Shown: positions 8,650 to 13,362, counted from the stretch's first letter. The stretch is DNA of 64,000 nucleotides from Myxococcota bacterium (GCA_965140415.1 OZ223209.1:4000001-4064000); one strand, 5' to 3'. The notes: a model not told the origin generated them from the letters alone. A program made the numbers and translations.

Positions 8650-9564
8650 GTGATGGCCGTAGCATGGGAGCAAATATTGACCCGAATAAGCAAACATGAC
8701 GAGCGCCGTGTACGAATCGCGTTCGGTGCGCTTGAAATCAACGACCGCGAGTTTTTCGCGTTGCTGGATGATGCCAAACCCGCTCAACGCGGCTTGGTCC
8801 GCCATTCGCAAGCTCCAATATTGATCAAACTCTACAACCAATTCGGGTTACATGTCACTCTCGGCGATTTTGCCCTGGACTCAAACCGGGGATTGATGTC
8901 TACACGTCCCCTCGCCTCACCACAAGACCGCATTGTCTTCTATGCTGCTAAACAGGCCGAGCATGCCGCTTACCTGAAAGATTTGGAAAGACGAACGCTC
9001 GACGAGAAACCATCTTTTACGGAAAACACTGAAAAGCTTGGACTCGCACTGGGTTATCCGGCCTGTTGCATCCGCTTTTTTTTACAGCATCACCACCTGA
9101 CTACACCGGAATTCCACTTTGCCGTCATCAAGCAAACCAATGGAAGCGCCGTCGCAGAACTGAACCCATTCGAGCCGAAACGTCTGATCAGCCACGAACC
9201 ATGCTCGCTTAATTGCAAGGAATCCATACAAATCGCCAAACAGATCAATCTAGCCCAACCTCAGCCGCTGTCCCGTGAAGAACTATGTGGTAGTTATATA
9301 AGTTTTTCCAGCGGGGCCTGGGTCAAACTGGAAACCACAGGTGATCGGCGACGTATCGTTCGTTATCGCTGTCTGAATAGCTCGGAAGGCTCCTATCCCG
9401 GCACAAATTCCAACAATGTGCCACCCCAAGCCTTATGGCAGCTTTTACAACAGCACGGAACTTTGCATCTTGGCGAAAACAAATTGACCGTCAGTCACAA
9501 CGGCCAACATCCGATTGCTTTGAAAGGTCGTAACAAGCAGTGGCAATGGGTGGAGTTCGTTTAG
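8650..9564 (+). CDS. DUF483-like hypothetical protein
   Basis: Motifs LGLALGYPACCIRFF and HEPCSLNC. Confidence 0.6.
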   Translation: MMAVAWEQILTRISKHDERRVRIAFGALEINDREFFALLDDAKPAQRGLVRHSQAPILIKLYNQFGLHVTLGDFALDSNRGLMSTRPLASPQDRIVFYAAKQAEHAAYLKDLERRTLDEKPSFTENTEKLGLALGYPACCIRFFLQHHHLTTPEFHFAVIKQTNGSAVAELNPFEPKRLISHEPCSLNCKESIQIAKQINLAQPQPLSREELCGSYISFSSGAWVKLETTGDRRRIVRYRCLNSSEGSYPGTNSNNVPPQALWQLLQQHGTLHLGENKLTVSHNGQHPIALKGRNKQWQWVEFV

Positions 9565-9619
9565 AATAAACCTGAGACTACCAACAAACACGAAAAGGAT
9601 GTCAACATCCATAAACGAC

Positions 9620-9645
9620 ATACGCGCGGCAAATGCCGCGCGTAT
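9620..9645. terminator. Perfect 11-bp stem-loop, probable terminator
   Basis: ATACGCGCGGC-AAAT-GCCGCGCGTAT, 55 nt after the DUF483-like stop. Confidence 0.6.
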
Positions 9646-9654
9646 ATTCAGCTT

Positions 9655-9980
9655 TAAAAAAAGCGGGTCAGGTCGTTGGCTGGTTACTCCCGTTCATGCC
9701 ACACGCAAAACAGATCCAAACAAATAATACCCCTGTCTCTAACTACCCCGTGTAGCGGCCTCCCCGCAAGGCAATGATGGCATCTCTTCTCTGTAGCCAT
9801 CCATGAACCGGTTTGCCCGGTCCGCGTTTGAACTCCCCTCCTCACCCCTATGAGGATAACACTCATTCGATCACTCGAATCAGGCCGGAAGCAACGCGAA
9901 AGAACCTGGATTCCAAAATAACAAAAAACAACGGGAACCTAACCCAAAACCTCTATTCTCACTCAATCTCCCTTGCGCCT
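9655..9980 (-). ncRNA. Candidate structured non-coding RNA (unknown family)
   Basis: 5' and 3' ends pair (G-U pairs work only on the minus strand), internal short hairpins with GGG(G) loops, U7 tail, sigma54-like promoter; no convincing ORF. Confidence 0.5.
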
Positions 9981-9989
9981 AATAACACT

Positions 9990-10006
9990 TGCAAAGTTCA
10001 TTCCAA
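9990..10006 (-). promoter_or_regulatory. Sigma54 (-24/-12)-like promoter
   Basis: Minus strand TTGGAATGAACTTTGCA: GG-N10-GC with TTGC at -12. Confidence 0.55.
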
Positions 10007-10100
10007 TTCGAAAACTACTACACACTGATATCTATCAGCATGATATTACTAAAATTATCAATCAATACCCTTGTAGTAAATCCGTTGAGCGTCAATCTAG

Positions 10101-10115
10101 TGACAAATTTTGTCA
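10101..10115. promoter_or_regulatory. Perfect palindrome, candidate enhancer-binding-protein site
   Basis: TGACAAA-T-TTTGTCA in AT-rich DNA about 120 bp upstream of the predicted sigma54 start. Confidence 0.5.
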
Positions 10116-10263
10116 TTTTCCTGTAAAATTTGCGACACCACTGACAATCTTCGCCCAACATGAAAAAGAGATCAAAAACAAAGCGGTTATTCCTGATAAT
10201 TTGGAAAATTGCAATGTTTTTTGTAACATTAAGGAAGATATTTCTGCTATCCAAATGACTTCG

Positions 10264-10983
10264 TCACTCCTCAATTTCAACAAGCGACAGCTCCAGCTCC
10301 ATCTGGTTCTTCGGCATCGGCAATGTCACCGTAGAAGAGGAAAAGTCCTGCCGCTGTTGTTCATCTATGAACAAAGCAGGAAACAACACGCGCCCGACCG
10401 GAAGATCCGTAAAAGAACACGTTAAAGAAGAAGCCTGCTCCTCGCAAACAACCATCGGCAGTTGAAAACCGGTCTCTTGATCGATCATCGCAGCAGAAAT
10501 CACCTCTTCCGACTCAGCCCCCAACACCACAAGATCCATCTCCGAAGTTTCAAGCCGACTGACGGTCAAATCGACCATTCGAGTTTCTCCTGCCACAAGA
10601 TCCAATATTGCGGGCTCTTCCGTTGCATAACTTTTCAAGGTTTCCCCCTGCACCTTGAATAGTACAGCAGAGATGCTTCTCTCCGCTCCCGCCTCCACCT
10701 CAAGGCTCAACTCATACGCACTGGTCATATCAACTTCCGGTCCCAACACAAGTTGTCCGGTTTGAGGCTCAGTGAAATCCGCTGCATCCACCTTAACCTG
10801 AAACGCTACGGAAAATGCGTCTTCCTGCTCCTGCAACACTCTTGGCACCAAGCCGGTTTCATCCGTTATTTTAAGCGATACCGCTACACCGGCAGGTGCA
10901 TCTTCACCTTGAACGAAACAGCCGCCTAGGACAAGCGTCATCAATCCGGTCAGCAGGAACATCTTTATTGTTTGCCGTGCCAT
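10264..10983 (-). CDS. Hypothetical lipoprotein
   Basis: Lipobox LGGC, beta-rich acidic mature part; last gene of a tightly coupled operon. Confidence 0.8.
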   Translation of the reverse strand: MARQTIKMFLLTGLMTLVLGGCFVQGEDAPAGVAVSLKITDETGLVPRVLQEQEDAFSVAFQVKVDAADFTEPQTGQLVLGPEVDMTSAYELSLEVEAGAERSISAVLFKVQGETLKSYATEEPAILDLVAGETRMVDLTVSRLETSEMDLVVLGAESEEVISAAMIDQETGFQLPMVVCEEQASSLTCSFTDLPVGRVLFPALFIDEQQRQDFSSSTVTLPMPKNQMELELSLVEIEE

Positions 10984-10984
10984 A

Positions 10985-11788
10985 CTATTCCTTCACTTGC
11001 AAACGTACGGTAATCGTCGCCTTGCCGTGTTCCACTTCAACCCCCTGGCTCTGGCCGTTGACTTCTCCCGCACTGCCGCTGGAACCGGATTCCAAGCAGA
11101 CCGACTCGCCAGCGCTGGCGCGTTCGTCACGCTGCTGCCCGCCTTCGTTGCCGCCTCCGATTCCCACGTCCGCCTCGGTTACCGATACCGGAGCTTCAAA
11201 ATCAATCGGGCTATCGCCTTTTGTTTGCATTCCGGCGGTGCGAATTCCTTCGGGAACGGGTAGTTTCTTCCCTTCCGCCGAAAAACAATCCCATTCCGAT
11301 TCCGGCGATTTCGAATCGTCATGCCGAGAATGAGAAATGATTTCCTTCCCTTCACAATCCGTTAAACGGCTACCTTGCATCAAGCAGACGCTTCCCTGTT
11401 GATCCTCAATTTTGAATCGGCAGGTACCATGACAGGTCACATCCCGCTGGCGTCTGCAAGCGGTACTCCACGCGATGCTTTTTCCCGGAGGAGTTTCAAC
11501 TACGACACTACCTATCATCAATTTCGGAATCGGACTCAAGCGCAGACGGCTATTCTCCTCCAACAACACCAAACCCCGCTCCGGCGCGAACAAACGCACC
11601 CAGGCGCCTTTTCCCGTCGCGATTTCCGTTCCTAAAGGCACTCCGGCTTTGGTTTCCGGCACACTTGGATTGCGATTGACAATCACCGCCCCTTGCTGCT
11701 CTAGAATACTCCATTGCTGCGCCTGAGCCGGCATTGCCCACAAAACGCCCAGCAACAGTATCATGCCAAACAATACGTTTCGCATCAC
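10985..11788 (-). CDS. Secreted FecR-like domain protein
   Basis: Signal peptide; GTEIATGKGAWVRL...VLLEENSRLRL resembles the FecR beta domain. Confidence 0.6.
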   Translation of the reverse strand: MMRNVLFGMILLLGVLWAMPAQAQQWSILEQQGAVIVNRNPSVPETKAGVPLGTEIATGKGAWVRLFAPERGLVLLEENSRLRLSPIPKLMIGSVVVETPPGKSIAWSTACRRQRDVTCHGTCRFKIEDQQGSVCLMQGSRLTDCEGKEIISHSRHDDSKSPESEWDCFSAEGKKLPVPEGIRTAGMQTKGDSPIDFEAPVSVTEADVGIGGGNEGGQQRDERASAGESVCLESGSSGSAGEVNGQSQGVEVEHGKATITVRLQVKE

Positions 11789-13362
11789 CAGGCCCCCTTT
11801 CCGGTGAAGGTCAACATCACCCGGTGCTGAGTGTATTGATATAGATCCACCGTGCTGCGGTTATGGGTAGCATCGTAGGAAACGGAAAGGTCGAAATTGG
11901 CGGTCGGCGTGTAACTCAATGAAGCACCACCAGACAGCAAATGGTCACGCCGCGCCTCCGGCCAGTTCTGACTATCGTCGGAATGGTGATTGTTCAGATA
12001 TTCATAGCGCATCCATCCCACCAGTGAAACGCCATCGACCACAAGTCCGGAGAGTCCGGCAAACGGCCCCACGCCCCAGCGATCGTAATCCGCTCGACGT
12101 GCATTCTCGTAACGGCCATGAGCCTCTAAGAAAAGCTTGAGCCGTTCATCCAGAAAGAAGAAAGACTGTCCCAGGGTCGCACGCCCAAACGTATTGTCGC
12201 GTCCACGATGATGATAAAAACCGCGCCCTGCTGAAACTTTCAGGGAAGTTTGCGTGGTTGACTCTCCCAACTCGCCTTCGGTCACCGCATAACGCAGCCA
12301 ACCGGAATGAGACTCGCTATAAACGTACGTATCCGGCTCTTCAGCCATCGTTCCGCCATCCAGCCCGACCAACGAACCGCTGTATCCGACTTGAATTTCC
12401 TGATCCAGCCCGCCACCAATGAAGCGCAGACGATATCGTGGCGATACCAGTAGCGTCCAGGAAGAAAAATCATCTGCCGGATCTTCGTAATAAAAAGTAC
12501 GAGACAATGACAAATCCGCTCCAAGCAGATGTCGCGCCTTGCGCAACGGATAAACACCCAGTTTCAGCCGCAAACTTGTTCCAAACGAATCGGGGCTTTG
12601 CCCGCTCTCACTCGCAGGATCGTCCGGCTGCTGAATGACATTGCTTTCGTACAACAGGGAAATCGCTCCCGCCACGCTGATCAAGGGATAGCGCTGGGGA
12701 CCATCATAGGCCATCTGCAACATTCGCTGCGCCGAATCGGAAAAGGCATTCGGGCTACCAGGTCGGTCGATGTAGTTCGTTAAACTGCGTCTGGCGTGCA
12801 CGTTATCCTTCTGCTGCAATTGAGCCAGTCCGAGATAATAGTCGATCAATGGCAATTCGGACTTTGCCATTTGCGGAACCTTTTTAAAGTGACTTTCGGC
12901 TGTCATTGGATCCTGCAATCCCAGTGCAGCCAATCCAAGCAGGTAGTGATAGCGAGACCGCTGTGAATCGACCAGCAGCGTTTCGGCTTTGCGCAGAGTC
13001 CGCTGAGCCCAAACATGCTTTTCGCGTGCGAGATATACTTCGGCCAAGCGAAAATGAAGAGTGACACTCTTAGGTTGTGCGCGTAATGCACGCGCATAAG
13101 CCTTCTCTGCCTGTTTCCACTGTCGATTGCTTACATGCCAGGCAGCCATGGCTGTCAGCGCCTGCCAGCACTGCCGATCCTGTTGAAACGCCTGCTTCCA
13201 TGTTTGAATGGCGGACTGTTCTTCTCCTTGCAGCACCATCGCCTGCCCCTGTGCAACGGCGAAATTGCAAACCACATCTGCTTGCGCCGATGCAAATGGG
13301 ATCTGGCAACCCAACAAGATCGCAAGCCCCAACACCGATAGCAGGACTTTATTCCACGCCAT
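11785..13362 (-). CDS. TPR-repeat protein with C-terminal outer-membrane beta-barrel (Slam/DUF560-like architecture)
   Basis: Signal peptide, TPR helices (YLLGLA, YYLGLA), then YESNV and amphipathic strands, NRSTVDLYQY, terminal W. Confidence 0.7.
   Translation of the reverse strand: MAWNKVLLSVLGLAILLGCQIPFASAQADVVCNFAVAQGQAMVLQGEEQSAIQTWKQAFQQDRQCWQALTAMAAWHVSNRQWKQAEKAYARALRAQPKSVTLHFRLAEVYLAREKHVWAQRTLRKAETLLVDSQRSRYHYLLGLAALGLQDPMTAESHFKKVPQMAKSELPLIDYYLGLAQLQQKDNVHARRSLTNYIDRPGSPNAFSDSAQRMLQMAYDGPQRYPLISVAGAISLLYESNVIQQPDDPASESGQSPDSFGTSLRLKLGVYPLRKARHLLGADLSLSRTFYYEDPADDFSSWTLLVSPRYRLRFIGGGLDQEIQVGYSGSLVGLDGGTMAEEPDTYVYSESHSGWLRYAVTEGELGESTTQTSLKVSAGRGFYHHRGRDNTFGRATLGQSFFFLDERLKLFLEAHGRYENARRADYDRWGVGPFAGLSGLVVDGVSLVGWMRYEYLNNHHSDDSQNWPEARRDHLLSGGASLSYTPTANFDLSVSYDATHNRSTVDLYQYTQHRVMLTFTGKGAW

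Follow-up and report, generated by a model that had tools for sequence, protein, structure and literature searches.

What, if anything, is encoded in the 699-bp gap at positions 9565-10263 of a 64,000-nucleotide stretch of DNA from a Myxococcota bacterium (GCA_965140415.1 OZ223209.1:4000001-4064000; hereafter the window, with positions counted from its first letter)? The source genome is a single contig of 5.98 Mb and the gap is flanked by convergent genes. A prediction made from the sequence alone had placed on the minus strand of this gap a sigma54-driven, structured RNA of about 320 nt with GGGG runs at its hairpin loops, which would titrate a GGGG-binding protein or form a G-quadruplex. 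We followed up this original prediction computationally. A structured minus-strand RNA of this size is still the best reading of the gap, given that it has no Rfam match, that its fold is strand-specific, and that contigs from two sequencing runs cover it. We tentatively favor a fuller description in which the gap is a stand-alone gene for a non-coding, lineage-restricted, sigma54-activated RNA of about 320 nt that acts as a G-tract decoy; taken with all of its parts, this description has somewhat less than an even chance of being right. Summed over all of the readings that include a real RNA, a real lineage-restricted gene for a non-coding small RNA (sRNA) is moderately probable. The analyses show the sequence features, the strand-specific fold, the rarity of the G-run cluster, the lack of a known RNA family, and the cover by contigs; where transcription starts, which sigma factor and activator site it uses, and how the RNA acts are inferred from them.

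Predicted fold and G runs of the minus-strand RNA

The predicted RNA body spans 9656-9979 on the minus strand (324 nt, from the predicted start to a U7 tract at 9662-9656 that would form its 3' end). We folded positions 9979-9656 of this strand with ViennaRNA and computed pair probabilities (P). The minimum free energy (MFE) of the RNA is -111.8 kcal/mol. In the MFE structure the two ends pair in a closing helix, P1, whose 5' strand (AGAGGU, GGGUUAGGU, and CGUUG; 9929-9954, minus strand) pairs with a 3' strand (CAACG, ACCUGACCC, and GCUUUU; 9659-9678, minus strand) that continues into the U7 tract. The mean P is 0.64 for AGAGGU/GCUUUU, 0.86 for GGGUUAGGU/ACCUGACCC, and 0.68 for CGUUG/CAACG. 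Long-range pairing of the ends had been proposed before, and GGGUUAGGU/ACCUGACCC and CGUUG/CAACG are both found in the MFE structure, but a further proposed pairing, GUUAUUUU/GGAGUAAC, is absent from it.

Inside P1, the fold predicts a series of stem-loop domains, all on the minus strand. Domain A (9824-9897) is a three-way junction of -29.8 kcal/mol with helix P values of 0.85-0.99, and it includes the hairpins AUUCGA/UCGAAU (P 0.99) and UCCUCAU-AGGG-GUGAGGA (P 0.97). It is followed by hairpin B (GGACCGG-GCAAA-CCGGUUC; 9805-9823; P 0.88; -10.8 kcal/mol), by hairpin C (GAUGGC/GCCAUC; 9776-9801; P 0.99), which has a purine-rich loop of 14 nt, and by hairpin D (GCCUU-GCGGG-GAGGC; 9758-9772; P 0.93). 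The last of the series is domain E (9698-9756), a long irregular hairpin of -19.4 kcal/mol with a closing helix, GCUACACG/CGUGUGGC, that has a P of 0.97. Six helices have a P of at least 0.86. Five of the six local hairpins in the chain that had been proposed are present in this fold (P 0.88-0.99), whereas the sixth, a CUAC/GUAG stem of 4 bp, is superseded by the 8-bp closing helix of domain E.

The core of the RNA (9897-9698, 200 nt) has z scores of -3.6 to -4.4 on the minus strand compared with -1.2 on the plus strand. As a control, 2 of 102 random 200-nt segments of the genome reached a z score of -3.6 or lower. As modeled here, the strand-specific fold of the core is clearly beyond chance.

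There is no local hairpin before the U7 tract (z -0.03). Both strands are predicted to form a strong GC-rich hairpin at 9618-9643, which separates the RNA from the convergent DUF483-like gene; its energy on the minus strand is -27.9 kcal/mol (z -5.45), and on the plus strand it is -21.5 kcal/mol (z -5.03). By this measure it is likely to be a two-way terminator. Because the U7 tract lacks a local hairpin, termination would occur via the long-range helix, or the RNA would end after the hairpin at 9643-9618. In the latter case the true 3' end may lie beyond 9618-9643 and the RNA would be about 365 nt long.

Five GGGG runs occur within 119 nt of the RNA (9848-9730), beginning at 9848, 9838, 9765, 9749, and 9733 on the minus strand, which agrees with the five in 120 nt that had been claimed. 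When both strands of the genome are considered, there are 5 clusters with at least five runs of four or more G per 120 nt. Three of these are coding repeats and the two intergenic ones are the 5' leader of a cold-shock protein gene (csp) and the candidate RNA locus. The context [A/C]GGGGU[A/G] is common to three of the runs, and nowhere else in the genome do three such motifs occur within 120 nt. The GGGG-run cluster is clearly beyond chance. The other intergenic cluster, in the csp leader at genome positions 392,340-392,490, has 6 runs in 150 nt; scored against the Rfam cspA thermoregulator, this leader reaches 16.3 bits, where the threshold is 78.

In the ViennaRNA fold, the GGGG runs at 9848 and 9765 are in hairpin loops with an unpaired P of at least 0.95. 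In domain A, GGGG 9848-9845 is looped and GGGG 9838-9835 is paired. In hairpin D, GGGG 9765-9762 is mostly looped, with three of its G unpaired at P 0.95-0.97, and the two runs in domain E (9749-9746 and 9733-9730) are mostly within stems. The replacement of CUAC/GUAG by the 8-bp helix means that two of the five runs are in loops in the MFE fold rather than the three originally counted. No G-quadruplex appeared in the MFE structure when quadruplexes were allowed, either for the whole RNA or for each sub-domain, and the spacings between the runs (6, 69, 12, and 12 nt) do not fit a compact quadruplex. The RNA also includes two GGGGAG/GGAGG motifs that resemble ribosome-binding sites. GGA motifs occur 9 times in the 324 nt, where composition predicts about 7, and no more than one of them (9763) touches a high-probability loop.

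As had been expected, the region does not belong to a known RNA family: there was no match to Rfam 15 at gathering scores, and at E values up to 10 nothing relevant was obtained, the best scores being 14.5-17.5 bits against thresholds of 35-50. The element is present in a single copy and has no paralog elsewhere in the genome.

Upstream region, contigs, and gene setting

A sigma54-like -24/-12 element, TTGGAATGAACTTTGCA, lies at 9990-10006 on the minus strand with GG-N10-GC spacing and predicts a start at approximately 9979. The extended sigma54 consensus is TGGCACG-N4-TTGCW, and TTGGAATGAACTTTGCA agrees with it at 10 of 12 positions. Genome-wide, there are 47 intergenic and 294 coding sites with 10/12 matches, an intergenic-to-coding density ratio of 1.39, compared with a ratio of 8.7 for 11/12 matches. 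On a matrix made from the 27 best intergenic sites of the genome, TTGGAATGAACTTTGCA reaches 10.4 bits, a score equaled or exceeded by 70 intergenic and 224 coding sites. Because matches of equal quality are only weakly enriched, the motif by itself proves nothing. The motif ends 12 nt before 9979, and it is 7 nt from this predicted start to the end, at 9972, of a contig described below (X3); by arithmetic, such a motif occurs at a rate of about 3e-5 per position genome-wide. The genome has one rpoN gene (Sigma54_DBD, 1 match) and 32 matches to Sigma54_activat, 29 of them at E values of 1e-25 or lower. The proposed sigma54 drive is plausible, with a motif of exact spacing at 10006-9990 and with rpoN and about 29 activators in the genome, but the motif is weak and a 10/12 match taken alone is not significant. 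Sigma54 control of the RNA is possible, with roughly even odds. None of the other sigma54-like sites in the genome is followed by a G-run cluster. Among the false sigma54 matches was a recurring palindrome, ATGGGCAA-N6-TTGCCCAT, which has about 10 intergenic sites in the genome (for instance at 745,466; 835,943; 1,223,556; 3,829,404; and 5,806,150) and is probably the operator of one transcription factor.

An AT-rich imperfect dyad at 10091-10145 precedes the -24 element and the start by approximately 104-130 bp. It includes a 15-bp palindrome, TGACAAATTTTGTCA, at 10101-10115, which is perfect, as originally described, and unique in the genome. The looser pattern TGACA-N5-TGTCA has 8 sites in the genome compared with about 6 expected by arithmetic. 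The 55-bp dyad has a second, degenerate copy of the palindrome 21 bp away and a 20-nt direct repeat at the same 21-bp spacing, and its 21-nt arms are 71% complementary. Judged from its sequence, this dyad is a candidate site for an enhancer-binding protein and the 21-bp spacing would suit paired sites. The palindrome does not occur near other sigma54 sites of the genome and, because it is found nowhere else, it points to no particular regulon or activator. Matches to the IHF consensus number 48 in the whole window, where 47.7 are expected.

Four sequencing runs (X1 to X4) were compared with the window. They were available as contigs only, which cannot show the start, end, strand, or level of a transcript, and RNA libraries can contain DNA. 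X1 has the whole stretch in one piece and may be the run from which the genome was assembled. X2 has even cover and flat depth, its loose contig ends often start with GATC, and it adds nothing to the analysis. X3, which is from the same study as X1 and is of a kind not on record, contributes a single 328-nt contig, which spans 9645-9972 and matches the window exactly. The word depth on this contig is 26.4 compared with 2.6-4.7 on the four X3 contigs of flanking genes. X3 lacks contigs at 9349-9644 and 9973-10398, but missing cover is no evidence and we did not use it. In X4, a wetland metatranscriptome, a single 290-nt contig at 9735-10024 is 98% identical, with 5 differences, and the flanking genes have no contig. 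The candidate RNA has to date turned up only in this species and in one near-identical relative from a wetland.

Four of the X4 differences are listed as 9773 A>G, 9782 A>T, 9784 C>T, and 9800 T>C (plus strand), and three of these four fall in hairpin C. In the predicted fold of the variant, 322 of 324 positions keep their pairing state, with an energy of -112.2 instead of -111.8 kcal/mol. One difference converts an A-U pair in hairpin C to G-U, another gives the stem of this hairpin an extra pair, and two are in a loop or linker. These four changes do not suffice as proof that selection acts on the fold.

The neighbor of the gap on the plus strand is the DUF483-like gene (8650-9564). On the minus strand is an operon of three genes (10264-13362) that encodes a TPR protein with a beta-barrel-porin-like C-terminus (11785-13362), an open reading frame (ORF) without family assignment (10985-11788), and, nearest to the gap, a putative lipoprotein with no Pfam family (10264-10983). 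A weak terminator-like hairpin followed by a U-rich stretch at 10021-10042 on the minus strand (9 pairs, 3 of them GC; -8.8 kcal/mol; z -1.6) is a possible end of this operon. The operon is kept in the order, and relatives of the lipoprotein occur in 8 of its 10 genomes, this genome counted. The DNA 3' of these relatives has no similarity to the gap (best E 0.67). Raw ORF maps of the relatives, which are crude, show gaps of about 20-370 nt after the lipoprotein gene and none of 700 nt. Within the gap itself, a profile search assigned no Pfam family to any ORF, the ORFs of 60 and 78 residues had no homolog in the protein collection, and no gene remnant was found. These results agree with the earlier view that the gap, at 699 bp, holds no credible gene. 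Its half near the operon (10000-10260) has a G+C content of 31-37% compared with 52% for the genome. In the remaining half, G+C amounts to 47-60% and the minus strand is rich in G (G 0.33, C 0.18).

The favored reading and its alternatives

In the reading that we tentatively favor, transcription would start at approximately 9979, most likely by sigma54 RNA polymerase, with a candidate enhancer-binding protein bound at the 10091-10145 dyad. The ends of the RNA would pair into the closing helix that leads into U7, and five inner stem-loop domains would display G tracts, two of the GGGG runs being in loops. The RNA would then act in trans by RNA-RNA pairing, with its exposed G tracts serving as decoys for C-rich (anti-Shine-Dalgarno-like) seeds in the manner of RosA and RsaI. 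We chose an RNA decoy over a protein sponge or a G-quadruplex because RNA sponging has a known precedent for stand-alone sRNAs with exposed G tracts; this choice is made by analogy and our confidence in it is low.

Several observations weigh against this reading. The motif has TGGAAT where the best sites of the genome have TGGCA[CT], so that it is missing the C of TGGCA that is nearly universal among them. There is no activator gene inside the window and no IHF-consensus site between the dyad and the promoter (10010-10100). The fold pairs up three of the five GGGG runs, and the z scores of the whole RNA are modest (-1.9 to -2.5). The X4 contig crosses the motif and overshoots the predicted start by 45 nt in the upstream direction, to 10024, and the limits of contigs together with the possible presence of DNA make the X3 and X4 contigs hints only. 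No locus in the genome has three complementary [C/U]ACCCC[U/G] motifs that would mark a partner. Similarity searches were also negative, and the check for homologs that had been proposed came out empty in about 460 related genomes. BLAST against 40 relatives and 400 genomes of the phylum gave only chance matches of 21-35 nt (E 0.001-0.01), and a covariance model of the 200-nt core run on 60 relatives gave best scores of 16.0 and 13.7 bits (E 0.08 and 0.34) compared with 248 for the window. Nothing was found in metagenome contigs by protein or by a 20-nt pattern, in contigs of genome collections by a gapped pattern or by protein, in viral contigs by two patterns, or in plasmids and phages by blastn. 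Because no homolog was found, comparison with other genomes lends the structure and function no support. The missing homologs are nevertheless weak evidence, because the set has no second genome of the genus, because orthologous proteins within the family are only 25-38% identical, and because even a clearly more convincing sigma54 non-coding unit, at 283.7-284.1 kb of the genome (described below), goes undetected in those 40 relatives.

The same null results would be expected if the gap held no functional RNA at all, only decaying or spacer DNA in which the G-richness and the fold are accidental and the contigs represent DNA or transcriptional noise. The element is an orphan in every collection searched, 2% of random segments of the genome fold equally well, the kind of X3 is not on record, X4 may carry DNA, and the relatives keep the lipoprotein operon while their raw ORF maps lack a 700-bp gap after it. 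It would then be a coincidence that a G-run cluster, a strand-specific fold, a -24/-12 motif, a dyad, a U7 tract, and a strong terminator occur together in one gap and that a contig matches the predicted limits of the RNA. Moreover, the more convincing sigma54 non-coding unit escapes detection in the same relatives, so that missing homologs say little, and no gene remnant was found in the gap. We consider this explanation unlikely but by no means negligible. A different proposal is that the transcript is the mRNA of a small ORF, in particular the 60-codon frame at 9684-9866 on the minus strand, which starts with ATG, is open inside the transcript (9866-9684), and has four Cys codons. This ORF has no Pfam match and no homolog among proteins of 33-105 residues. 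It has no upstream Shine-Dalgarno sequence, where the genome uses canonical GGAG/GAGG/AGGA, and its AUG is in a stem with a P of 0.99. All 4 of the listed X4 differences within it are non-synonymous (M23V, R28K, C29S, and C32R) and two of them replace Cys. The non-synonymous changes, the lack of a Shine-Dalgarno sequence, and the AUG in a stem argue against coding, and on these grounds the ORF looks non-coding. An mRNA of this or another small ORF is highly improbable.

The RNA could also be real without being a sigma54 unit, for instance a processed or read-through 3' tail of the lipoprotein operon or the product of a weak sigma70-type start, in which case the -24/-12 motif is there by chance. 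This is consistent with the X4 contig that reaches upstream of the motif, to 10024, with the marginal intergenic enrichment of 10/12 matches (1.39), and with the weakness of the hairpin after the operon (-8.8 kcal/mol). TGTTAT at 9987-9982 could act as a poor -10 box. However, no sigma70-like promoter turned up in a promoter scan of the minus strand. The motif is rare per position and is at exactly the right distance from the end of the X3 contig at 9972, and the AT-rich dyad is at the distance of an enhancer. We regard a transcript of this origin as rather unlikely. Finally, the RNA might work as originally proposed, as a sponge for a protein that binds GGGG loops or as a G-quadruplex. The G-run cluster is extremely rare in this genome and its shared context is unmatched elsewhere, protein-titrating sigma54-driven sRNAs are known, with GlmY and CrcZ described as decoys in PMC13501541, and a shared reader of G tracts is conceivable given that the only other intergenic cluster is the csp leader. 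On the other side, the fold has no quadruplex, the spacing of the runs is unsuitable, and only two of the five runs are looped. We cannot name a candidate G-tract protein, neither Hfq nor Ro60/TROVE was found in the genome, and binding of the CsrA type fails on the number of GGA motifs (9 compared with about 7 expected) and on their position (at most one in a loop). The CsrA of the genome is paired with its protein antagonist, FliW. The analysis thus gave no support to this part of the original prediction, and we regard it as improbable.

Known systems and other loci in the genome

The favored G-tract decoy is closest in concept to RosA of Bacillus subtilis and RsaI (RsaOG) of Staphylococcus aureus. 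These are independent units in which G-rich single-stranded tracts pair with C-rich sRNA seeds (PMC8216469; bioRxiv 10.1101/278127), and RsaI has two G tracks that bind the C-rich sRNAs RsaG, RsaD, and RsaE (bioRxiv 10.1101/278127). Like these, the candidate is a stand-alone unit with several G tracts, and by prediction it has the exposure that defines this type, at least two single-stranded G-rich tracts in a stand-alone sRNA. RosA and RsaI act independently of Hfq, and no Hfq gene was found here. The candidate differs from both in length (about 320 nt compared with 229 nt for RosA and 144 nt for RsaI), in its sigma54-like promoter where theirs are sigmaA promoters under CcpA, and in having no sequence or Rfam similarity to them; two of its five G runs are predicted to be exposed.

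GlmY and CrcZ are sigma54-dependent. The candidate resembles them and Qrr1-5 (activated by LuxO, with GlrR/QseF for GlmY and CbrB for CrcZ) in having a -24/-12 promoter, an upstream activator site, which here is a candidate only, and no ORF. In contrast to these sRNAs, it has no homology to them, no adjacent activator gene, and a sub-consensus motif (TGGAAT). CrcZ works via CA motifs and Hfq and GlmY works via RapZ. With CsrB, CsrC, and RsmX-Z it shares a multi-hairpin architecture and G-rich loops that resemble ribosome-binding sites, but its GGA motifs are at chance frequency and outside of loops. The genome has one CsrA gene, which adjoins FliW on the same strand, and CsrA that is paired with FliW is antagonized by protein. 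We rejected a CsrA sponge on the GGA motifs, its defining feature; the CsrA here is also of the type that is paired with FliW. The candidate resembles 6S RNA in the long closing helix formed by its two ends, but its core is multi-branched where 6S RNA has a central bubble. The 6S RNA of this genome is at 1,786,401-1,786,581 (73.8 bits) and the candidate has no 6S score at E values up to 10, so it was rejected as a 6S RNA. The lack of a detectable Ro60/TROVE gene in the genome argues against a Y RNA. A retron was rejected because the convergent gene starts downstream and leaves no possible reverse-transcriptase ORF, and a mobile repeat was rejected because the element is single copy in the genome and has no plasmid or phage match.

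RNAduplex comparisons of the G-tract region with 18,816 intergenic segments, covering part of the genome, gave energies dominated by long spurious loops. A candidate partner unit is found at genome positions 283,546-284,112. It follows a sigma54 activator gene and three GCAACA/TGTTGC boxes, and it has a near-perfect sigma54 promoter, TTGGCATGAACATTGCA (11/12), followed by approximately 390 nt without an ORF of 120 codons or more. The unit has C-rich loops and, ahead of a canonical terminator, a CUCCCCCC tract at 284,056-284,063. It has no Rfam match and no DNA match in 40 relatives. These sequence features suggest a sigma54 sRNA that carries an anti-ribosome-site seed, and the unit could be a partner of the G-tract RNA. 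One could imagine a two-RNA sigma54 circuit in which the G-tract RNA, as a decoy under the control of an activator, titrates the C-rich (anti-ribosome-site) seed of an sRNA such as the 283.7-284.1 kb unit, or, alternatively, titration of a G-tract-binding protein that also reads the csp leader; we consider such schemes quite improbable. If true, either would be a type of sponge not yet described outside Firmicutes and Gammaproteobacteria.

In itself, the locus is another orphan sRNA candidate, a class that is already numerous in the literature. If the RNA is real, it is a lineage-specific regulatory RNA in a poorly studied order, in a genome with about 29 sigma54 activators and no detected Hfq, and it would give a handle on post-transcriptional control in that order, where its dense G tracts predict pairing with C-rich seeds.

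Two other loci were noted in the genome. At 346,740-346,830, in a 3' untranslated region between convergent genes, four runs of at least four C occur within 40 nt directly before a strong terminator hairpin, and this sequence may be a C-rich sRNA derived from the untranslated region. At 3,775,800-3,776,310 is a CRISPR-like array with a repeat unit that includes CCCCACGGGTGTGGGG at a spacing of approximately 60 nt.

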